From a virus (taxonomy: Duplodnaviria > Caudoviricetes): a stretch of 55,390 bases of DNA. Made by a program: the position numbers and the translations under genes. Shown one piece after another: positions 3,436-55,390 of this stretch. The notes beneath the pieces are model-generated. The model saw only the letters and a program-made list of their open reading frames with translations, was not told where the DNA came from and made no database searches. How positions within the stretch are numbered: the stretch's first letter is position 1; every line of letters starts with the position of its first letter. The stretch lies in IMG/VR virus record IMGVR_UViG_3300036790_000109, positions 1-55,390 of that record, one strand, 5' to 3'.

Positions 3436-4098
3436 TTACGCGCGGCGGGTCATACGCGACAACGTCTTGGCTGTGAACTGCTTCCCGTGAGCTGTGCGAT
3501 GGCCGGCCGCGTTGAGACGCGCAGCACGCTCTGCCAGGCTTCCCGTGCCCGCTGCGACGAGCAGGGGCGCGTCTCTGCGGGTAGCTTCCATGATGCGCTT
3601 GGCGGCCGTTACCGCGCCGCCGCGGGCGGGCGCGGGAGATCCTAGCTTCACCCCCTTGGCTTTCAGCACCCGCAGCGCCATTTTGGTGCGTTCGCTGATC
3701 TGGTCGCGCTCAAACTCGGCGAGTACCGCCAGCATCCTGAACACCATGCGCCCGGCCGCGGTAGTCGTATCGATTTTCTCGGACAGGCTGACCAAGTCCG
3801 CGCCTTGCCGCTCGAGCCGGTCAGCGATGTCCAGCATGTCTCGCGTACTGCGCGCCAAACGGCTGATAGAGTAGGAGACGAGCGCCGTTCCCCTGACTGC
3901 CGCGGTAAGTGCCTGCTCGAGTCCGGGCCGTCCTTTGGTGCTCGAGCCCGATATGCCGGCGTCCTCATAGATGGCGATCAAGTCGCCATCGTTGAGCTCG
4001 GTCCACTTCCTGATGCGGTCACGCTGCGCATCCAGCGAGATTCCCTCGGTAGCCTGATCTTGCGTCGAGACGCGGACGTAGCCTATGACTTTCATCAA
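3436..4098 (-). CDS. Small serine recombinase (resolvase/invertase family)
   Basis: GYVRVSTQDQ, EDAGISGS, SISRLARS, DTTTAAGRMVFRMLAVLAEFERDQISERTK; short C-terminal DNA-binding region. Confidence 0.93.
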   Translation of the reverse strand: MMKVIGYVRVSTQDQATEGISLDAQRDRIRKWTELNDGDLIAIYEDAGISGSSTKGRPGLEQALTAAVRGTALVSYSISRLARSTRDMLDIADRLERQGADLVSLSEKIDTTTAAGRMVFRMLAVLAEFERDQISERTKMALRVLKAKGVKLGSPAPARGGAVTAAKRIMEATRRDAPLLVAAGTGSLAERAARLNAAGHRTAHGKQFTAKTLSRMTRRA

Positions 4099-4445: not shown

Positions 4446-4578
4446 TGAGCCAATCCTCTTCTGACTTGTCGGGTAAAGCTGACTTGTCGGGTAAAGTAGG
4501 GGGCGCGTGAAGTTTGTGCGACTCCGCATGCTCCGGCCGCCGCGGATCGCCGCCGCACGTTGGGCAATATTCACTCAT
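4438..4578 (-). CDS. Small hypothetical protein (CxxC), ends TLPDKSALPDKSEEDWLNA
   Basis: ATG 4578 with SD; fills the gap in the operon. Confidence 0.55.
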   Translation of the reverse strand: MSEYCPTCGGDPRRPEHAESHKLHAPPTLPDKSALPDKSEEDWLNA

Positions 4579-4641
4579 TGAGCCAGTCCTCGGATTCTGA
4601 CTTGTCGGGTAAAGTACTGTCCTCGCGTGAAAGTTTGTGCG
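4443..4641. repeat. Imperfect ~70-bp duplication containing three copies of CTGACTTGTCGGGTAAAG
   Basis: Blocks ~4443-4520 and ~4576-4641; 18-mer at 4461, 4479 and 4597. Confidence 0.85.
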
Positions 4642-4930
4642 CGCGGATGCCCGCGCATTCGTCAGGCGGAAACCCCACACTTTCGAGCGTCGGTAAAGTG
4701 GCGGTTGCCTTGAGCGCATCGTTCACAATGGAGCGCTGCGGCTCTTGCGCCAGCGCTCGGCCGAGGGGCGTATCAGGCACCGAGTCGTCCGGCGCGTCTA
4801 GCTCATCTGCCAGGTCTGAGAGTTCCTTGGCAATGCCGCGGTCCAAGTCTCCGCCATAGTGGCGGTTTGCCTCTAGGACGGCGCGCAGTCGCAAGGTTGC
4901 GATGATTAGGTCGCGTTGGTGCGGAGTCAT
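4571..4930 (-). CDS. Hypothetical protein, ends TLPDKSESEDWLNE
   Basis: ATG 4930 overlaps the upstream stop (ATGA). Confidence 0.65.
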   Translation of the reverse strand: MTPHQRDLIIATLRLRAVLEANRHYGGDLDRGIAKELSDLADELDAPDDSVPDTPLGRALAQEPQRSIVNDALKATATLPTLESVGFPPDECAGIRAHKLSREDSTLPDKSESEDWLNE

Positions 4931-5205
4931 TCGTCGAAGCCTTCGCCGTCTGGCCATGTAGGATGCGAGACACAGTGGCTGCTGCGCGCGTCCAGTTTGC
5001 CGCTCTTAGTGACAGCAAACTCGGAATGCTCCAGCCAGTCGGCATCGCTCGCGAATTGAACGCGGTACGACTTGCCGTCGGGCCGCTTACCGCGTGCCCA
5101 CGTCGGCTTGTGCTCGCGCGTGAAACGATGCACGAACCTGGCTTTAGCTTGCTCGCGTGCCGGTGGCGACAGCTTGTCGCCGGTTACCCATATTAGCTCG
5201 GCCAT
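4927..5205 (-). CDS. Hypothetical early protein
   Basis: MAELIWVTGD...HRFTREHKPTWA...SHPTWPDG; SD upstream. Confidence 0.7.
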   Translation of the reverse strand: MAELIWVTGDKLSPPAREQAKARFVHRFTREHKPTWARGKRPDGKSYRVQFASDADWLEHSEFAVTKSGKLDARSSHCVSHPTWPDGEGFDE

Positions 5206-5271
5206 ACTTCTTCTCCCGCGCCACCAATGGCGCATTGTCGGGTACCCGTTACCCAGGCACCCTGCAATGCG

Positions 5272-5697
5272 TCACGGGCAGATTGCCGTTCCTACGCTGT
5301 TGTAGCAGCAGTCTATGCCGATGCTCGGCTTCTCGGGCGAAACGCGTATGCGGTAGTTGTCCAAGTCAATCGGACGATACAGGTACAGCGCGCAACCGCG
5401 CGGATCGGTTTGGTGGTAGACCTTGAAGCCGCGCGACTCGGCAATCTTGGCAACGCGTTTGAGCGCGCCGGTTTCCGCATCAACGGCGCGGCCCATACGC
5501 TTGCCGTCGTACGTCGAATGCCAGTACGGGATATCCGTTTTCTCATCCCGCTGTATCGCGCCGTTGCACTCGTGCTCTGCCCAGCTATGCAAGCGGGCCG
5601 ATGCGCGTACCAGCGTAGCGGCTTCGTCCGGTGTGAAGCCGAGACGGCCGAGACTTGCGAACGTTTCTTGTCTGTGTCTGCTCATCGAGTTCACCAT
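5272..5697 (-). CDS. Conserved-looking hypothetical early phage protein
   Basis: LHSWAEHECNG and HQTDPRGCALY motifs; start at 5697 or 5685. Confidence 0.75.
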   Translation of the reverse strand: MVNSMSRHRQETFASLGRLGFTPDEAATLVRASARLHSWAEHECNGAIQRDEKTDIPYWHSTYDGKRMGRAVDAETGALKRVAKIAESRGFKVYHQTDPRGCALYLYRPIDLDNYRIRVSPEKPSIGIDCCYNSVGTAICP

Positions 5698-5963
5698 TTA
5701 GCGAAGTTAGGAAGCTTAGAATAGATGTCGTCGCAAATGTTTTCGTACATTTGCGCCGTTGGTATGTCTCCCATGCCGCGCGACAGCATTGCCGCTGCTT
5801 TGTTGCTGGCGTAATGGCCTAGCTGACGCGTCGCGCGCACGTATCCAGCATACTGCGCCGGAAACAGCTCGCGCGCCGTGTCAATGGGGTGCTTGTCGGC
5901 GCGGTTCCAGAATTCGACAAGCTCTTTTTGCGTCATACCGTCATCCAAGTTAAGGGCAGGCAT
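5691..5963 (-). CDS. Hypothetical early protein
   Basis: MPALNLDD... with GGAGAG SD. Confidence 0.7.
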   Translation of the reverse strand: MPALNLDDGMTQKELVEFWNRADKHPIDTARELFPAQYAGYVRATRQLGHYASNKAAAMLSRGMGDIPTAQMYENICDDIYSKLPNFAKW

Positions 5964-6019
5964 GTCTCTCTCCGGTTTGTAAGGTAGGCGTATCCCGCGA
6001 CGTTCCCAACGTGGAAACG

Positions 6020-6172
6020 TCACAAGTTCCACCGCGAGTATCGCACCGAGTCAGAAGACACGACGACGCGCAGCGATGCGTTCTCGTACGTGTCGGATAT
6101 GCGCTGGCGTTGCTCACGTGTCAAGGCAGGCTCACGCCAAGCGGTAAGGAATGCCCGTATCAGACGCATCAT
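6020..6172 (-). CDS. Small hypothetical protein (50 aa)
   Basis: Manual translation MMRLIRAFLTAWREPALT...RWNL; ATGA-coupled. Confidence 0.5.
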   Translation of the reverse strand: MMRLIRAFLTAWREPALTREQRQRISDTYENASLRVVVSSDSVRYSRWNL

Positions 6173-6411
6173 GATATGTACCCCTCTGACACTGCGAACT
6201 CGTACAGCGCACGCTCGGCGGAAACCACGTCGCCAAACAAGCCTTCATGACTGCCGATCGGCACGCACCATCCGAGCGGCGCGGGCTGGTACATGAACAG
6301 CTCATCCATATACACGCGCCCCGGACCGGTGGCACCAGACGCAGCAATGTGCTCAATCGCGCCAAGGTCCGCAACGTCGCGGCCCGTAGCTTGGAACTCT
6401 TCGAATGTCAT
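6169..6411 (-). CDS. Hypothetical protein, first gene of the early operon
   Basis: MTFEEFQATGRD... with GGAG SD, just downstream of a promoter. Confidence 0.7.
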   Translation of the reverse strand: MTFEEFQATGRDVADLGAIEHIAASGATGPGRVYMDELFMYQPAPLGWCVPIGSHEGLFGDVVSAERALYEFAVSEGYIS

Positions 6412-6442
6412 CACGTGAGTGTCTCCGGTGACCATGGGCGGA

Positions 6443-6471
6443 AGCATACGCCATACCCTTTGCGTGTGCAA
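6443..6471 (-). promoter_or_regulatory. Sigma70-type early promoter
   Basis: TTGCAC (6471-6466) - 17 bp - TATGCT (6448-6443). Confidence 0.65.
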
Positions 6472-6767
6472 TACCTGAAACGCAAAAAGTGTGGAGTAGT
6501 GCCGTGGGAACTAACCGTGAGTGAGGAGAAAGGACTGCATTCGACTCAATCCGTGATGAGCAACGCCAGCCTCTCAAAACGTGAAAATAAGGGATAGCAC
6601 GGTAAGGGGTCGGCTCACTGCACGGCTTGGCGGCCTTCGTATGCGGTCTGTTATGTCGCATTAGACACGCGGAACGCGATATGGCGCGATAGCGCGGCAT
6701 TAATATTGAGAGAGGCTAAAGCACTTAACGATAATTAGAGAATATTAATTCGAGCCATTTAACCGCG

Positions 6768-7060
6768 TGCTCCAGCATGCTCCAGCAAAGTCGGCGGAGC
6801 ATGCTGGAGCATCCTAGAATCAATGACTTAGATAATTGCGAGCTTGCGGGCAATAATCACGTGTTAGTTTTACACTTATGCAGTCAACAGGTAGTGCGAG
6901 ATAAGTGCATAGATATCAACGTGTTAGCGTCGGAACGTGAGAACGTATGGAGAATGCTCCACGCTCCACGATGCTCCAGCTAGAGCATCGTAGAGCATCT
7001 AGAGCATCGCAATATGCTCCAGCGCGCTCTGGCTCCCTTTAGGGGCCAGTAGCTGGAGCA
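6768..7060. repeat. Iteron-like cluster (~12 copies of a TGCTC(C/T)A core, both orientations); candidate origin or packaging region
   Basis: TGCTCCAGC at 6768, 6778, 6972, 7015; GCTGGAGCA at 6803, 7052; TAGAGCATC at 6981, 6991, 7000; lies in the non-coding divergence region. Confidence 0.7.
6818..6926 (+). promoter_or_regulatory. Two IHF consensus sites
   Basis: AATCAATGACTTA (6818-6830) and TATCAACGTGTTA (6914-6926) both match WATCAANNNNTTR. Confidence 0.6.
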
Positions 7061-7360
7061 TGCGAAGTGCAGAGTCGACCCGGTTAGCTTGAACCGAGAG
7101 ACGCCAAACTATTCCGGCTCGGCAAGTGTTAAGCGCCACCCCGCGTTGTGGCGTACGCATGCGGTCGGTTGCATACGCGACGCACTGCAGTAGCTGCCAG
7201 GCACGCGCGTGCCATGGTCAATAAGACATAACGCATTCCTTGCCACGGAACTGGTCATATTACATATGCTGGAAACGAGCTCCCCGAAATCGATTGCCAC
7301 CCTTCGCTGTCAGTCATACGCAGCGTAAGGTCCTTCTGTAAGTCGTACAGCAAAAAATTT

Positions 7361-7416: not shown

Positions 7417-8097
7417 ATGCAACGTCACACCGCCATTCTCGCTTTCATCGACCAAGTTAGTTCAGAACTTCCCCGTGGACAACGTGGTCGCGACGCGCGT
7501 GCCTTGCTGCCCTCGCGGCTTTGTAAAGGGTGCCGACAATTAGCGCCGGAGCTGGGATTTCGCGCGAAGGGGGATGCGTATTGTATTACCTGTCGTGATG
7601 CGCGCAGAGTTGTTCGTGAAAATCCAGAAATGCATCGCGCGCAGAAACTGGCTAAGGTGCGTGCGCGCGCGGCTGCCGTGCAGGCGGACCCCACTTTGCG
7701 CGTCAAGCGCAACCAGATAGCGGCAGAATCGCGCGCTCGTCAAATAGCGCGGAACCCTGAAGAATTTCGTTTTCGCCAAAAGGCAAATCGAAAACGGTGG
7801 CGGGACAGCCACCCCGGTCACAGGCAGCCATCTTCACGCATTACTCCCGCGCGCCGCACGGCGCCGCCCACCCGGCCGGCCCCCGCCGCATGTGAAGCGT
7901 GTAAGCGCGTGTTTGTTGGCACCCCGCACGCAGATCACGTGCACGGGACAGATATCTTTCGCGGGTGGCTATGCGGACAGTGCAACACTGGCATTGGGAT
8001 GCTTGGGGACAACATTGAGGGCCTGGGGCGTGCGATTGCGTACCTCGAGTGGTCGAAAGCACAAGTTCCCGTGGAAAAGCGCTGGCTGCTGGAATGA
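7417..8097 (+). CDS. Endonuclease VII-type HNH endonuclease
   Basis: CEAC...HADHVHGTDIFRGWLCGQCNTGIGMLGD. Confidence 0.85.
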   Translation: MQRHTAILAFIDQVSSELPRGQRGRDARALLPSRLCKGCRQLAPELGFRAKGDAYCITCRDARRVVRENPEMHRAQKLAKVRARAAAVQADPTLRVKRNQIAAESRARQIARNPEEFRFRQKANRKRWRDSHPGHRQPSSRITPARRTAPPTRPAPAACEACKRVFVGTPHADHVHGTDIFRGWLCGQCNTGIGMLGDNIEGLGRAIAYLEWSKAQVPVEKRWLLE

Positions 8098-18581: not shown

Positions 18582-18760
18582 GTGATTCGCACTGGGCTCT
18601 CACGGGAGAGCTCAGACAGAATCGCATGTTGCCGCGGGGACCTTCGAAAGAAGCCTGCACCAGCAACCGCCGTGTGCGCTACGAGACAGCGTGAGGTGAG
18701 AGCGGGCCGGGAAACCGGGACCCCAATTGATCCAGTTGGCCGTGGAAGTCGGCTATGCCT
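18582..18760 (+). ncRNA. Structured 5' leader of the major capsid gene
   Basis: Stems 18582-18625 and 18628-18667, GAAA tetraloops at 18646 and 18711, hairpin 18723-18739. Confidence 0.5.
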
Positions 18761-18791
18761 CTCCCTTTCAACCCCTTTTGAGGAATCTCAA

Positions 18792-19667
18792 ATGTCAATC
18801 AATTTGGGTGGCGTTTATACGTCAACCACGAACGCCGCTATCGCGTCGTTCGACACCGATGTGAAGCTGGCTTACCAGGGCGAAGGCGTCCTGCGTAACA
18901 CCGTGCGTGTGAAGACCGGCATCGTCGGCCAACAGTTCGCGTTCCGTAAGATCGGCGCGTCGGTTGCCTACCAGCAGACCGCTTCGGCCGAGGAAATCAC
19001 CCCGAACGACACGAGCCACACGAAGATTTTCGCGACCCTGACGAACTGGCGCGTTGGTGACTACACCGACCTGTTCGACCAGGCCGAGACGAACATCGAC
19101 GAGCGCTCGTTCCTCGCGAAGGACAATGCGAAGGCGATCGGTCGTGCCGAGGACCAGCTTGTCATCAACGCGCTGGCGGCCGTTTCCGGTCCCGCTGGCA
19201 CCGTGGCGTCCGGTTACGCCGGCACGAACACCGGCTTGACCGCGGATAAGATCCGTCACGCCAAGCGGTACCTCGTGCAGCAGCAGGCGTCTGGCGGCGA
19301 TCACTACATGGTGATCAACGCAATCGCTCTCGAGACGGCCCTCGCCGAGATCGAAGTGACGAGCGCGGACTACCAGTCGATGCGCATCCTCACGGATGCC
19401 GACGCGAACAACAAGAAGATGTTCGGGTTCACCTTCAAGGTGCTTGAAAATCGCGTTGAGGGCGGCCTCCCGGCTGGTTCCTCGAACGTGACCGAGTGCT
19501 TCGCGTACGACAAGGCGGCCATGGGGCTTGCCACGGCGATCGAGCCGACTTCGCGCGTGGACTTCATCCCGCAGAACAACGCGTGGCTCTCCCAGAGCAT
19601 CTACATGGGCGGCTCCGTGGTCATCGACCCGCTGGGCGTCGTGATCGTGAACGTCTACGGCACCTAA
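18792..19667 (+). CDS. Major capsid protein
   Basis: GAGG SD; FDTDVKLAYQ..G.LRNTV, AIGRAEDQ.VI, G.VVIDP.GVV; strong codon bias. Confidence 0.88.
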   Translation: MSINLGGVYTSTTNAAIASFDTDVKLAYQGEGVLRNTVRVKTGIVGQQFAFRKIGASVAYQQTASAEEITPNDTSHTKIFATLTNWRVGDYTDLFDQAETNIDERSFLAKDNAKAIGRAEDQLVINALAAVSGPAGTVASGYAGTNTGLTADKIRHAKRYLVQQQASGGDHYMVINAIALETALAEIEVTSADYQSMRILTDADANNKKMFGFTFKVLENRVEGGLPAGSSNVTECFAYDKAAMGLATAIEPTSRVDFIPQNNAWLSQSIYMGGSVVIDPLGVVIVNVYGT

Positions 19668-38195: not shown

Positions 38196-38714
38196 ATGGC
38201 TCAAAAGTTCAGCTACCCGGTGAAGCGCAGTCCGAAATCGGACCCGCAGCAGTACCGCGTGTACAGAATGGAGAACGAAGCAATCGGTGCGCGCCGGTAC
38301 CACAGGATGACACCGGAAGTGCAACGGGGGCTGGCGGCAGGGATATGCCGCAACTACCGTGTGCCCCAAGTGCATCTGGAGTGGGCCGATCTCGGCAAGT
38401 GGGCGGCGGAGTGGGGTTCAACACCCCGAACCATACGGCTTAGCACGCGCAAGGGAACATCACAGGATCTGCTTACCTTGACACATGAGCTCGCACATCA
38501 TGTTCACCATTGGCTTTCCGGGGGTGCCGCCAATAAACAAGAAAGCCACGGACCCGAGTTCGTTGGCGTCCACATGAGCATCCTCGACACTTGCCGGGTG
38601 ATCCCGGTCGTTGGCATGCGCGCGGTGTGTGCGGCGTGGAAGGTACGTTATGCGGACCCTGGTACGAGGAGTTCGCTGAAGCAACTCCGACGCGTTGCGC
38701 AGGGGCGCGCATGA
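38196..38714 (+). CDS. SprT-like zinc metallopeptidase
   Basis: HELAH plus HGPEF. Confidence 0.75.
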   Translation: MAQKFSYPVKRSPKSDPQQYRVYRMENEAIGARRYHRMTPEVQRGLAAGICRNYRVPQVHLEWADLGKWAAEWGSTPRTIRLSTRKGTSQDLLTLTHELAHHVHHWLSGGAANKQESHGPEFVGVHMSILDTCRVIPVVGMRAVCAAWKVRYADPGTRSSLKQLRRVAQGRA

Positions 38715-39232
38715 CTGTAGTAGCCCCCAGCCAAGACACCGGCGGCGCCGCGCTGCTGGCGCAGATCGCCACCGTGCAGGCGCTCGTCACGGCGAACGCC
38801 AACCCGCTCGTCCTGGCCCAGCTCACGGCTCAGCTCAACCAGCTCCAGGTTGAGGCGATCGATCATTTCATGGTGACGGGATGGATCAACGCCGCGACGA
38901 TCCTCGAGACGTACACGGCGCCCGCGTGGGATTCGGTGGGGCAGGCGCTCACGGCGCGCGTCGCCTTCCTGCAGGCGCTCTACGAGAACGCTCCTGCGCC
39001 GCTTCCCGGCAACGCCGAGGGCTACGGCACGGCAGGGTGGGTGACGGTGGCGCAGAACTACGCCCAGCAACTATACGCCGCGCAGATCAGTCTTGTGGAG
39101 CACATCATGGCGCTCCCCGGTGGAACGCCCGCGGCCACGATGCTCGCGAACTTGACGGGCTTCCAATCCTTCCCGTTCGAATACGTGTTCAGCTCCGTCG
39201 GCTACACCGACGCGGACACCGAGGGCGACTGA
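38711..39232 (+). CDS. Hypothetical protein with two helical repeats, paralogous to 20070-20309
   Basis: AQIATVQALVTANANP...AATILETYT and a second ...AATMLANLT repeat. Confidence 0.7.
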   Translation: MTVVAPSQDTGGAALLAQIATVQALVTANANPLVLAQLTAQLNQLQVEAIDHFMVTGWINAATILETYTAPAWDSVGQALTARVAFLQALYENAPAPLPGNAEGYGTAGWVTVAQNYAQQLYAAQISLVEHIMALPGGTPAATMLANLTGFQSFPFEYVFSSVGYTDADTEGD

Positions 39233-39237
39233 GCCCG

Positions 39238-39666
39238 CTACGCAATGATATCGGGGATCTTCGTCCCCACGGGGGGCTGCTCCTCCATCGAACCGACCGC
39301 CTTCAGGGCGGCGTTTTCGTTTCTGAGGGCGGAGATTTGCCCCATGAGGAGCTGGACCGAGAGCGCATCGTTCCGGCGGATGGTCCATTGGTCGGGGGAG
39401 ATGATGTCCTCGCCGCGCAAGAGCCAGCCCACCCAGTACGGGCTAAAGGCCCCAAGATCCCCGTTCACCAGCGCCTGGGCGGCGTAGGGCATGCGGGACT
39501 TGCCGGACTTCCACCGGCGCGCCGTCGCCAGGTCGACGCGGCATAATGCCGCGATGTCCTCAGCGCGTTTTCCGTAGCAGGCATTTTGCATCGCCTGAAT
39601 TTGCGCCGATGTTGGTTTGCTGGCGAGCTTCGCCTTTGTTTTTCGTGGTTTGGGTCTCGTCCACAC
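39238..39666 (-). CDS. HTH + DUF3653-like protein (XafT-like Xer activation factor candidate)
   Basis: AEDIAALCRVDLATARRWKSG HTH, then GDLGAFSPYWVGWLLRGEDIISPD resembling DUF3653; start GTG 39666 or ATG 39591. Confidence 0.7.
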   Translation of the reverse strand: MWTRPKPRKTKAKLASKPTSAQIQAMQNACYGKRAEDIAALCRVDLATARRWKSGKSRMPYAAQALVNGDLGAFSPYWVGWLLRGEDIISPDQWTIRRNDALSVQLLMGQISALRNENAALKAVGSMEEQPPVGTKIPDIIA

Positions 39667-39685
39667 CGCGATATGGTAACACGGA

Positions 39686-39713
39686 ACTACGCATAATATA
39701 TAACGTGTCGCAA
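39686..39713 (+). other. dif-like Xer recombination site (candidate attP)
   Basis: ACTACGCATAA-TATATA-ACGTGTCGCAA versus E. coli dif GGTGCGCATAA-TGTATA-TTATGTTAAAT; XerC arm and spacer conserved, XerD arm degenerate. Confidence 0.7.
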
Positions 39714-39820
39714 AGGCATTCTGCCTCAAGCACTTACGCGATCAATGGGTTGCACCCCTTGACGTGACGCATGCACGGAGGCAGAATGCTGCCATAGGCG
39801 AAGCCAGCGGCGGACGTTGC

Positions 39821-39973
39821 TCAGGACACGTTCGGCATTCGGACGATCATCTCGAGGAGGACCCCGAAGGCGAGGGTGGCCGCCAGCACCTGTAGGGCGA
39901 AGAGGAAGCCGTGGCCCCACACTTCGAGCTGGTCCTTCTGTCTGCGCGTGAGCCGGATCTTTTTGCTGAGCAT
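39821..39973 (-). CDS. Small membrane protein (50 aa)
   Basis: Manual translation MLSKKIRLTRRQKDQLEVWGHGFLFALQVLAATLAFGVLLEMIVRMPNVS; TGATG-coupled to the helicase. Confidence 0.6.
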   Translation of the reverse strand: MLSKKIRLTRRQKDQLEVWGHGFLFALQVLAATLAFGVLLEMIVRMPNVS

Positions 39974-41379
39974 CAGCATCTCCCGAGTTTGGTGGCGAGG
40001 GCAGCCATCAGATTTTGTTGGGTGAGAGTTTTCGCTTTAATGAGCCGGATGTAGTCCTCGTCCCGAGTGCCTTGCGCCACGATGTGGTGTACTCGGACAT
40101 TTCGGCCCATTCGTCGATGACCACCCGTGAGGCGGGCGCGGGCTTGCTCGTACCATTCGAGGTTATTGGTGAGCCCGAACCAGAGCATGTCTTCGCAGCC
40201 AGCTTTGTATACATCATTGAGACCATGGCCGGCAGATGCGGGGTGGAGTACTCCCCAGTCAATACGGCCAGCAGCCCAGTCAGCGAAGTCCCGGTCAGAG
40301 TCCAAGTGTCTCCAGGTCCGACCGTCAGCCTTAGATCGCCTTTCGAGTACGCCAGCAACCCGACTGGTGTCGTGTTTGAAGTTGACACAGATGAGGACTT
40401 TGCCACCGATCTCCTCCAGCGCTTCTTCGAGCGCCTCTAGCTTTGCATCATGGAACGGCACCCACTCGCGCTTCTCACCCGTGTAGCAAGCGCCATTCGC
40501 GAGCTGGAGTAGCTTACCGTCCAACACTCCGCCGTTAACCGCAGTGAGCTGCTTCCCAGCAACTTCCGCAATGTACTCGCGCTCAAACTTCTTGTACGTC
40601 TGCATTGCCGTGTGGCTGAGTTCGCACCGTATGAAGTTGTCCTTGACCGGCGGGAGATCCAGGTAATCTTTCTCCCTGAGCACGAGCACGATGTCTTTGA
40701 GTTTTTCATGGATCTCCGGCGGTGCGTGGGGCTTCAGAGCCCACTTCTGGAACATGCCGCTCGGCGGCGTGAACCACCGATCGCGCATCGCGGTCTCGCT
40801 TTTCCCGAGCCGATGGCCCTTGTCAAGTAACCAGAGCTGGCTCCAGAGTTTCCCGTATCCGTTCGGGATCGGCGTGCCGGAGAGCTCGGTTAAGCGTGGG
40901 AACTTCGTCTTCTCGCGCAGGTCCGCGAGTGCCTTGAACCTCTGACTCGACTGGGATGCGAAGGTCTGGGCCTCGTCGGCGGCCACCCAGTCCCACGGCC
41001 ACTCGGTTACGAGCTTGTTGTGCTGGACGAACTGGGCGTGCAGCCAGGGAACGCGATCACGTCCGATCGTATGGATGTCCGCGTCACTCTTGAGAGCATC
41101 AAAGCATTGCTCAGCAGTTCCCACGATACGAGAGACACGAAGGTGGTTGAGGTGCGACCACTCCTGTACTTCGTCTGACCAGACTTTACGGGCTACTCGC
41201 TTAGGGGCAATGACCAGCATTTTGCGAACATCGAAGCTCTCCCGCATATCGCTGAACGCTGTGAGCGTTGCGACGGTCTTGCCGAGGCCCATCTCCACCC
41301 ACAGCGCCGCATTACGCCGCGACTTCAGGAAGTCGACGGCATGACGCTGATAGTTGTAAAGATCAGAGCGGTAGAACAA
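39973..41379 (-). CDS. SNF2-family helicase
   Basis: EMGLGKT, VIAPKRVA, DEAQ, LSGTP, HPASAGHGLN. Confidence 0.92.
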   Translation of the reverse strand: MFYRSDLYNYQRHAVDFLKSRRNAALWVEMGLGKTVATLTAFSDMRESFDVRKMLVIAPKRVARKVWSDEVQEWSHLNHLRVSRIVGTAEQCFDALKSDADIHTIGRDRVPWLHAQFVQHNKLVTEWPWDWVAADEAQTFASQSSQRFKALADLREKTKFPRLTELSGTPIPNGYGKLWSQLWLLDKGHRLGKSETAMRDRWFTPPSGMFQKWALKPHAPPEIHEKLKDIVLVLREKDYLDLPPVKDNFIRCELSHTAMQTYKKFEREYIAEVAGKQLTAVNGGVLDGKLLQLANGACYTGEKREWVPFHDAKLEALEEALEEIGGKVLICVNFKHDTSRVAGVLERRSKADGRTWRHLDSDRDFADWAAGRIDWGVLHPASAGHGLNDVYKAGCEDMLWFGLTNNLEWYEQARARLTGGHRRMGRNVRVHHIVAQGTRDEDYIRLIKAKTLTQQNLMAALATKLGRC

Positions 41380-55065: not shown

Positions 55066-55390
55066 CTATTCCTTGACCATGACGAATTTGCCGCGCTTCA
55101 GCGTGTACCACGTATCCGCTTTAATGCCTGATGTCTTACCAACAACAGCTCCAGCGGCAGCGATCACGTTTCCGTAGTCGTCGCGTTCCACGAGGAGGAG
55201 GGCGCACCCATCCGCGCCCTTAACTTTGCCCTGGTAGCCAGTTGCACTCGCCGCGCCCCGGTCGCCAGTTGCACTCGCCGCGCCCCGGTCGCCAGTTGCA
55301 CTCGCCGCGCCCCGGTCGCCAGTTGCACTCGCCGCGCCCTGGACGCCAGTTGCACTCGCCGCGCCCCGGTCGCCAGTTGCACTCGCCGCG
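55066..55390 (-). CDS. DUF7666-like repeat protein, C-terminal part
   Basis: Repeats, then GKVKGADGCALLLVER...GIKADTWYTLKRGKFVMVKE and stop at 55066. Confidence 0.85.
   Translation of the reverse strand, partial: AASATGDRGAASATGVQGAASATGDRGAASATGDRGAASATGDRGAASATGYQGKVKGADGCALLLVERDDYGNVIAAAGAVVGKTSGIKADTWYTLKRGKFVMVKE
55228..55390 (-). repeat. 27-bp tandem repeat, ~6 units, same as 1-324
   Basis: Identical unit sequence; the window ends mid-unit. Confidence 0.97.

Follow-up and report, generated by a model that had tools for sequence, protein, structure and literature searches.

We analyzed the 55,390-nt stretch of DNA that makes up the tailed-virus record IMGVR_UViG_3300036790_000109 (called the window below, at its full length), with the focus on a site resembling the chromosomal recombination site dif and on the adjoining gene, which encodes a relative of the Xer recombination activation factor XafT. 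The two arms of the genome converge at this locus, as had been noted from the letters: the late arm on the plus strand stops at 39232 and the arm on the minus strand stops at 39238, six bases apart. The open reading frame (ORF) of the XafT-like gene has alternative starts at GTG 39666 and TTG 39729 besides the ATG listed in Table 1, and the gene lies just downstream of the site, as claimed, with gaps of 95, 20, or 0 nt for starts at 39591, 39666, and 39729, respectively. The 28-bp string ACTACGCATAA TATATA ACGTGTCGCAA was found on the plus strand at 39686-39713 exactly as the sequence-only reading had written it. Its left arm and central region probably match those of the host dif, the X2 contigs described below sharing exactly 39686-39702 with the window, and its right arm is degenerate, retaining G at inner position 5 and T at inner position 6. 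Within the window, the core CGCATAATRTATA has one exact occurrence and, at ≤2 mismatches, 2 matches (0.48 expected from shuffles), and the half-site CGCATAATGTATA has one match at ≤1 mismatch; none of 60 first-order Markov simulated windows held any match to this half-site. FtsK-orienting polar sequences (KOPS) were too few for a strand bias to be read, with 2 copies of GGGNAGGG on the plus strand and 0 on the minus strand.

The predicted protein was compared with curated family models. NCBIfam NF040522 (VC1465 family Xer recombination activation factor, XafT) matched it with an E value of 6.5e-12 and 45.5 bits, below the curated cutoff of 70 bits, and the alignment paired protein residues 35-122 with profile positions 12-102 of 111. 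The gene had been described as encoding a helix-turn-helix (HTH) protein like DUF3653. This description held insofar as NF040522 matched and homologs carry the domain, but PF12375 (DUF3653) gave no match to the window protein itself at E ≤1 in a protein scan or at E ≤10 in a six-frame scan, so that its gathering threshold was not reached, and the only Pfam match was to HTH_23 (E 0.073). Among 5.8 billion proteins we found 9 homologs, one of them the window's own, and 4 have a precomputed PF12375 annotation; homologs at 50-58% identity bear this domain. In an alignment of the window protein with 8 homologs (A1), PF12375 matched 6 of the 9 members when scanned, and the profile made from A1, run against 1.84 billion proteins, matched 870 cluster representatives (E ≤1e-3). 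There was no tblastn match to the protein in 50,697 deposited phage genomes and no relative by sequence in the PDB. Judged by these profile matches, the protein is a divergent XafT/DUF3653 relative and not a member of either family by curated thresholds.

The window has two relatives whose genomes are collinear with it almost throughout, and these differ at this locus. The first (locus L014; 57,124 bp, 74% portal identity) is circular as judged by its 141-bp terminal overlap, and carries a XafT-like gene (42% identity) and a site, AGTTCGTAGAA TGTATA CTAAGTGGGCC, in the same place as the window; both genomes have gene and site and no tyrosine integrase. The second, the IMG/VR record behind locus L017 (54,904 bp), has 73% helicase identity, and most tblastx matches between it and the window are at 60-88% amino-acid identity. 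Like the window, it has its lysogeny cassette between the helicase arm and the late arm. Unlike the window, however, it encodes there, before the last late gene, its own P4-type tyrosine integrase of 435 aa (Arm-DNA-bind_3, Phage_int_M, Phage_integrase), and it lacks the XafT-like gene, the dif-like site, and the serine recombinase considered below: no tblastx match to 39238-39666 was found in it, nor a site at ≤2 mismatches. Since this relative has a tyrosine integrase at the same place, the lineage is temperate and the slot serves it for lysogeny. Scans for further relatives turned up only this 54.9-kb record.

To place the pairing of site and gene in a wider set, A1 was used to scan IMG/VR, GTDB genomes, and JGI metagenomes, which gave 28 loci; after six duplicates were dropped (L008 = L009, L037 = L036, L042 ~ L035, and L044-46 = L004-6), the nonredundant set comprised 22 loci and the window, 23 in all. 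In 16 of these 23, CGCATAATGTATA (≤2 mismatches) lies within 300 nt upstream of the homolog, on the opposite strand and in the same orientation, mostly 24-60 nt from the matched region of the homolog. Elsewhere in the 455,640 nt of these loci, on both strands, the same motif at the same tolerance did not occur at all. The site is thus conserved beside homologs of the gene, as had been expected. Thirteen free-form sites have a complete right arm; C5, G6, A8, and A11 of the XerC arm are invariant in all of them, and the XerD arm is degenerate in all of them, with 1-7 of 11 matches. Within this degenerate arm, 10 sites have G at inner position 5, and 9 have T at position 6.

Several of these loci belong to other double-stranded DNA (dsDNA) phages. 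L003 is recognizable as one from ERF, YqaJ, and a homolog of a DNA polymerase exonuclease subunit (tblastx), and it also has ORFs resembling lysis and tail genes by position and sequence and two large ORFs without a Pfam match. Homologs of the DNA polymerase exonuclease were likewise detected in L036 (tblastx) and in L031 (by eye from the ORF). In L028, the order is a cellular-type gene with a PAS domain, a full site ACTGCGCATAA TGTATA TTATGTAATAT, the XafT-like gene, DNA polymerase A, and a 5′-3′ exonuclease. By this gene order, L028 looks like the right attachment junction (attR) of another integrated dsDNA phage. Among the 7 loci without the site, L007, L010, L030, and L033 place the homolog directly after an Xer-like tyrosine recombinase gene, with no dif-like site upstream of the homolog; L034 has neither the site nor an Xer-like neighbor, and L040 and L043 are short partial matches. 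The recombinase of L007 is XerC-like (318.6 bits), that of L033 is XerD-like, that of L010 is weaker, and L030 was judged from upstream DNA alone. These Xer-paired homologs may represent a cellular or island-borne operon of Xer plus activator. The L007 pair stands beside ORFs that resemble recA and alaS by sequence.

A natural junction at the site was seen in soil sequencing runs. The 2-kb stretch 38700-40700 is present in three such runs, X1, X2, and X3, whose contigs were aligned to it. In X1, a possible and indeed likely source of the record, the site lies uninterrupted within a 36,206-nt contig, in the phage attachment site (attP) form. In X2, from another sample and study, a 2052-nt contig (depth 6.4) follows 38700-39702 with 0 differences and then continues with 13 letters that are not those of the window, TTATGTAATATTA. 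These letters are a canonical XerD arm, as can be seen by comparison with the dif arm quoted in the sequence-only reading, and their first 11 are matched by the right arm of L028. A TTATGT... arm attached at 39702 had been predicted and occurs in this independent run, and the 2052-nt contig appears, from its letters, to be that attR junction. A second X2 contig, of 101 nt, opens with 49 foreign letters, after which it aligns with 39686-39737 with 5 differences. Of the breakpoints, 39686 falls exactly on the outer border of the XerC arm (11 nt) and 39702 exactly on the last base of the spacer (6 nt). Most of what X2 has to the right of the site comes from a diverged strain.

The way in which the 2052-nt contig ends is consistent with a real junction. 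Logan contigs are built from 31-letter words, and the final 30 letters of this contig are 39686-39702 plus the 13 new letters. A stop at this point is expected if a second molecule in the sample (an empty dif or another attR) has the same letters throughout to the right of 39686. A chimera is disfavored because it would need a shared 31-mer, while attP and the new arm share only 17 letters. Should the contig derive from a variant of the free phage whose dif mimic is complete, the exchange would still have taken place exactly at the spacer, in a background identical over 1 kb.

The kinship of the gene, the pairing with the site in 16/23 loci, and the X2 junction together support the core of what had been proposed from the letters, namely, that a tailed phage uses a TLC-type attP and a XafT-like factor to enter the host dif through host XerCD. 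Replacement of the module by a tyrosine integrase in the second relative and the alphaproteobacterial dif sites described below are further independent lines in favor of Xer-mediated integration. We consider it likely that the window is a podophage-like 55-kb genome with a TLC-type module belonging to an integrative mobile element that exploits Xer (IMEX), and that it integrates at the host dif by means of host XerCD and its XafT-like factor. The mechanism can be modeled on TLC-phi, as outlined in the accessible text of PMC6744903 and PMC9226527. Upon infection, the circular genome would pair its attP with the chromosomal dif, and host XerC would bind the good arm. The XafT-like protein would contact host XerD, activate it without FtsK, and stabilize the synapse on the poor XerD arm. 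The 55-kb genome would then be inserted by a pair of strand exchanges at the borders of the 6-bp spacer that both sites share, with XerD presumably acting first. One prophage end would consist of the XafT-like gene, the phage XerC arm, the spacer, and the host XerD arm, which together would form a working dif as in X2 and L028; the other would consist of the host XerC arm, the spacer, and the degenerate phage arm.

The window had been called integrase-less. With respect to tyrosine and large serine integrases this is correct, but the 220-aa serine recombinase encoded at 3436-4098 had been overlooked. PF00589 had no match in six frames, and two tyrosine recombinase queries had no tblastn match. 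Its catalytic domain is closest to integrative recombinases of the CcrB/CcrC/XisF type, and its PHROG matches are to integrase/invertase families with "integrase" on top. This protein may be a rival or an accessory to the integration module. If it were the true integrase/excisionase, the dif-like site would be incidental or would serve in the regulation of the HTH gene, a scenario we regard as very unlikely. Resolvase-sized serine recombinases do serve as integrases in some filamentous phages, and the protein is found in both phages that lack a tyrosine integrase (the homolog in the 57-kb relative is syntenic, with 41% identity) and not in the relative that has one. However, PF00239 alone was matched, so the catalytic domain comes without the domains (recombinase, zinc ribbon) that large serine integrases have in addition; the X2 junction joins a canonical XerD arm to the dif-like spacer, 35 kb from this gene; and 16 of the 23 loci, which come from many unrelated elements, pair the site with a XafT-like gene. 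We know of no reason for the sites of serine recombinases to mimic dif. No convincing inverted repeats or invertible segment were found near the gene.

A second rival reading is that the phage persists as a circular plasmid prophage, with the site and the XafT-like factor acting as a cer/psi-like multimer-resolution site and the X2 junction as an occasional by-product. In its favor, plasmids resolve dimers via Xer sites, according to the available sections of PMC9226527, each assembled form is either circular or continuous through the site, and the major capsid search of the sampled genomes found no full integrated copy. Against such a plasmid state, a relative has a true integrase at the same locus, which therefore serves this lineage as an integration module; the integrative TLC class is marked by a degenerate XerD arm together with XafT in the portions of PMC6744903 and PMC9226527 that are accessible; and host-type XerD arms are joined to the site in X2 and, beside a cellular-type gene, in L028. 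We give this scenario very little credence.

The DNA around the site also suggests how the gene might be expressed. A long hairpin separates the early operon from the site (Table 1), and the RNA fold of 39700-39805 on the minus strand has -45.9 kcal/mol with a z of -3.7; the hairpin is a possible terminator or insulator. In upstream DNA inspected by eye, the 57-kb relative has a comparable inverted repeat, GCATTCTGCC, upstream of its site, and relatives have -10-like hexamers between the XerC arm and the XafT-like gene. Because the hairpin separates operon and site and such hexamers exist in relatives, the XafT-like gene may have its own promoter, which would overlap attP and stay with the gene after integration. 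For the same reasons, the idea of the sequence-only reading that crossover would cut the gene off from the replication operon, as a built-in switch, is weakened. That the motif is nothing but a promoter/operator of the HTH gene, its likeness to dif being convergent, is to our mind extremely improbable. The region is AT-rich and intergenic, and by eye the spacer TATACA falls at the place of a -35 element (TATACA, 17 nt, and TAGAAA in L003; TATACA, 16 nt, and TATAAT in the 57-kb relative), but a promoter scan gave no minus-strand promoter at the site in the window, conservation falls on the XerC arm, with its four letters invariant in 13/13 sites, rather than on the hexamers, and the X2 junction, the full dif in L028, and the integrase swap would be left unexplained. 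A promoter overlapping attP is compatible with integration at dif by XerCD. Both a dimer-resolution role and a purely regulatory role of the site account for less of the evidence than such integration does.

The host is probably an alphaproteobacterium, as suggested by a search for dif sites similar to the one at the junction. GCATAATRTATATTATGTAATAT (≤2 mismatches) had one match each in 24 of 151 alphaproteobacterial genomes, and its reversed control had 0; 13 of these 24 matches have the spacer TATATA. The best of them, GATACGCATAA TATATA TTATGTAAAAT, is identical at 25/28 positions to the recombinant site inferred from X2. Other candidates were rejected. Within Acidobacteriota, 1 of 301 genomes, an AT-rich one, had a match within 1 mismatch, and within Terriglobia 1 of 401 had a match within 3 mismatches, a poor one. 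Two gammaproteobacterial metagenome-assembled genomes (MAGs) have classical dif sites at 3 mismatches. The binning of the 57-kb relative gives no host, since the two MAGs that hold it have no dif matching that phage's site. In one of these two, G003, the dif reads TCGCATAA TATGTA TTATGGGA.

A number of observations weigh against integration at dif by host XerCD. No complete prophage with both ends was found by the major capsid search of these genomes: neither the 243 other genomes in G003's order nor the 2 in G779's order had a close relative of the capsid, and among 401 alphaproteobacteria the 85 with a match had ≤38% identity, apart from G003 itself. Integration at dif is thus represented by one attR-like and one ambiguous attL-like contig in X2 and by the attR-like L028, with no whole prophage found. 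The attR junction is one contig of depth 6.4 that extends 13 letters beyond the crossover; the 101-nt contig could be the left junction (attL) or the attP of the diverged strain; and X3 has no cover at the site. Searches of IMG/VR for the exact attR string, the attP/attL strings, and a hypothetical attR of the relative gave no match, and the absence of the attR and attP strings counts on this side as well. The protein falls below the curated cutoffs of both NF040522 and PF12375, the serine recombinase co-occurs with the site-gene module in 2/2 phages, and the counts for positions 5 and 6 of the XerD arm are not independent because the 13 sites are related in sequence. Finally, a Pfam scan of 10 early-region proteins recognized an endonuclease VII domain only and no repressor. 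On balance, we lean toward a broader picture in which an integrase-free lineage of tailed soil phages carries a portable cassette of dif half-site and XafT-like gene that drives XerCD to insert 55 kb at dif, the cassette being swappable with a tyrosine-integrase cassette and shared with the polymerase-encoding phages L003, L028, L031, and L036, and in which loci L007, L010, L030, and L033 hint at XafT-like factors as cellular Xer regulators.

[quoted passage not shown] The XerD arm deviates at 8/11 positions in TLC-phi, as given in the accessible part of PMC9226527, and at 7/11 in the window, and both keep the guanine at the fifth inner position. TLC-phi, however, is a small filamentous satellite of a gammaproteobacterium, whereas the window is a 55-kb dsDNA genome with T7-like virion genes and its own DNA polymerase, its host is probably an alphaproteobacterium, and its protein is only remotely related to XafT (VC1465; 45.5 bits). 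In the available text of PMC12715192, this lysogeny module moves horizontally between unrelated virus groups and is treated as a feature of non-tailed elements; there too a XafT-like gene is terminal beside a dif-like site in the integrated element, but an RstR/P16-like repressor of the kind described for those viruses was not recognized beside the window's gene. The Legionella pneumophila element LME-1 and the gonococcal genetic island (GGI) also integrate at dif through a partial mimic that leaves one intact and one modified dif, as described in the accessible sections of PMC9765430. These sections, in contrast to what we propose for the window, attribute LME-1 integration to a single recombinase, XerL, and a 22-bp identical att, and term LME-1 "phage-like" while describing no virion or XafT-like factor for it; the GGI is without a XafT-like protein in the corresponding part of PMC6744903. 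Phages reported there and elsewhere to exploit Xer are inoviruses, a gokushovirus (microvirus), and corticovirus-like and double jelly-roll viruses (available text of PMC12715192, PMC9765430, and 10.64898/2026.02.19.706829). Their sizes in the literature range from a few to about 16 kb. No tailed phage using Xer was found in the literature searched, which left out most subscription journals and supplements, so an earlier mention is possible.

The genome as a whole has a GC content of about 62% and a CheckV completeness of 100%. Both contig ends fall within the same 27-nt tandem repeat (1-324, 12 copies; 55228-55390, 6 copies), from which the contig can be read as a circular or circularly permuted genome broken in the repeat; the array is an assembly break, little of the genome can be missing, and the description of the genome as near complete is sound. 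The ORF that contains the 27-nt repeat codes for 9-residue repeats of the type GAASATG(D/V)(R/Q), and its product matches many tail-fiber/collagen-like PHROG families. In the late arm, matches to phrog_332 (head-tail adaptor, 2.5e-72), phrog_376 (tail protein, 6e-87), phrog_6651 (internal virion protein, 5.5e-38), and phrog_3437 (major head protein) make up a T7-like virion module, with a T7-type portal and tail tubular and internal virion proteins present. The nearest deposited phages are podophages, with portal identity of ≤31%, and the label of tailed podophage is reasonable given the gene content, the phage being known here from its genes alone. The late arm also has large ORFs of tail-fiber size (judged by size only) and a weak match to glycoside hydrolase 19 (E 0.0011, below the cutoff), which may be a lysin candidate. 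Single remote homologs of the major head protein (27-38% identity) occur in 84 of 400 other alphaproteobacterial genomes sampled and may be capsids of gene-transfer agents or prophages. A cluster of GCTGGAGCATGC-like motifs spans 4521-7068 in the variable early region, with a perfect 16-nt palindromic pair at 6768-6811 and copies at 4521, 5019, 6965, 7014, and 7052, and may be an operator or origin region. In the 57-kb relative, 3.3 kb of sugar-nucleotide epimerase/dehydratase genes are inserted beside the module, which looks like a moron cluster at the would-be prophage end.

Table 1. Features of the window and of related loci (L numbers), with coordinates in the respective sequence
Feature	Coordinates	Strand or source	Remarks
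XafT-like gene (HTH + DUF3653-like), 117 aa	39238-39591	-	ATG at 39591; last gene of the minus-strand arm
Putative XerC-binding arm ACTACGCATAA	39686-39696	+	Inner 7 nt CGCATAA kept in most homologous sites
Central (crossover) region TATATA, 6 bp	39697-39702	+	The otherwise identical X2 contig switches to a canonical XerD arm after 39702
Degenerate XerD arm ACGTGTCGCAA	39703-39713	+	4/11 identical to the junction arm TTATGTAATAT
Long hairpin between early operon and site	39713-39792	-	Perfect 12-bp arms at 39716-39727 and 39778-39789
Small serine recombinase, 220 aa	3436-4098	-	PF00239 (Resolvase), E 3.4e-44 and 1.8e-42
Late arm	about 10.3 kb to 39.2 kb	+	Terminase-like, T7-type portal, major head, tail, and internal virion proteins (PHROG)
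Early/replication arm	39.2 kb across the contig ends to about 10.3 kb	-	SNF2 helicase, DNA polymerase A, exonucleases, primase-helicase, methyltransferase
Major head protein	18582-19667		Late arm
226-aa protein with C-terminal endonuclease VII domain	7417-8097	+	Sits inside the minus-strand early region
RmlD-like reductase, Polysacc_synt_2 dehydratase, UDP-GlcNAc 2-epimerase	L014 15516-18391		Between helicase and attP/XafT-like module
PAS gene, complete dif-like site, and XafT-like gene	L028 1-1300	Metagenome contig	
Xer-like + XafT-like gene pairs	L007 8737-10348; L010 8880-10381; L030; L033 1068-2260	Bacterial contigs	Overlapping or few bases apart

To our knowledge, tailed phages are taken to need an integrase or a transposase of their own. 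What is probably new here is that a podophage-like genome of 55 kb carries an IMEX cassette of the TLC type, for which an integrase cassette can stand in, and that it does so probably beyond the gamma- and betaproteobacteria. If this is correct, the dif region would tolerate very large Xer-driven insertions, and in viromes a phage with "no integrase" would no longer count as "virulent" on that ground. The combination of a XafT-like gene and a XerC half-site would then be a lysogeny marker for the prediction of prophages and also of hosts, the latter because attP copies the dif of the host. XafT-type activation of Xer would extend beyond the gamma- and betaproteobacteria, to which the accessible part of PMC6744903 maps it, probably to the Alphaproteobacteria. 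The swap between integrase and XafT cassettes would moreover provide a natural pair of phages in which the costs and benefits of both strategies can be compared.

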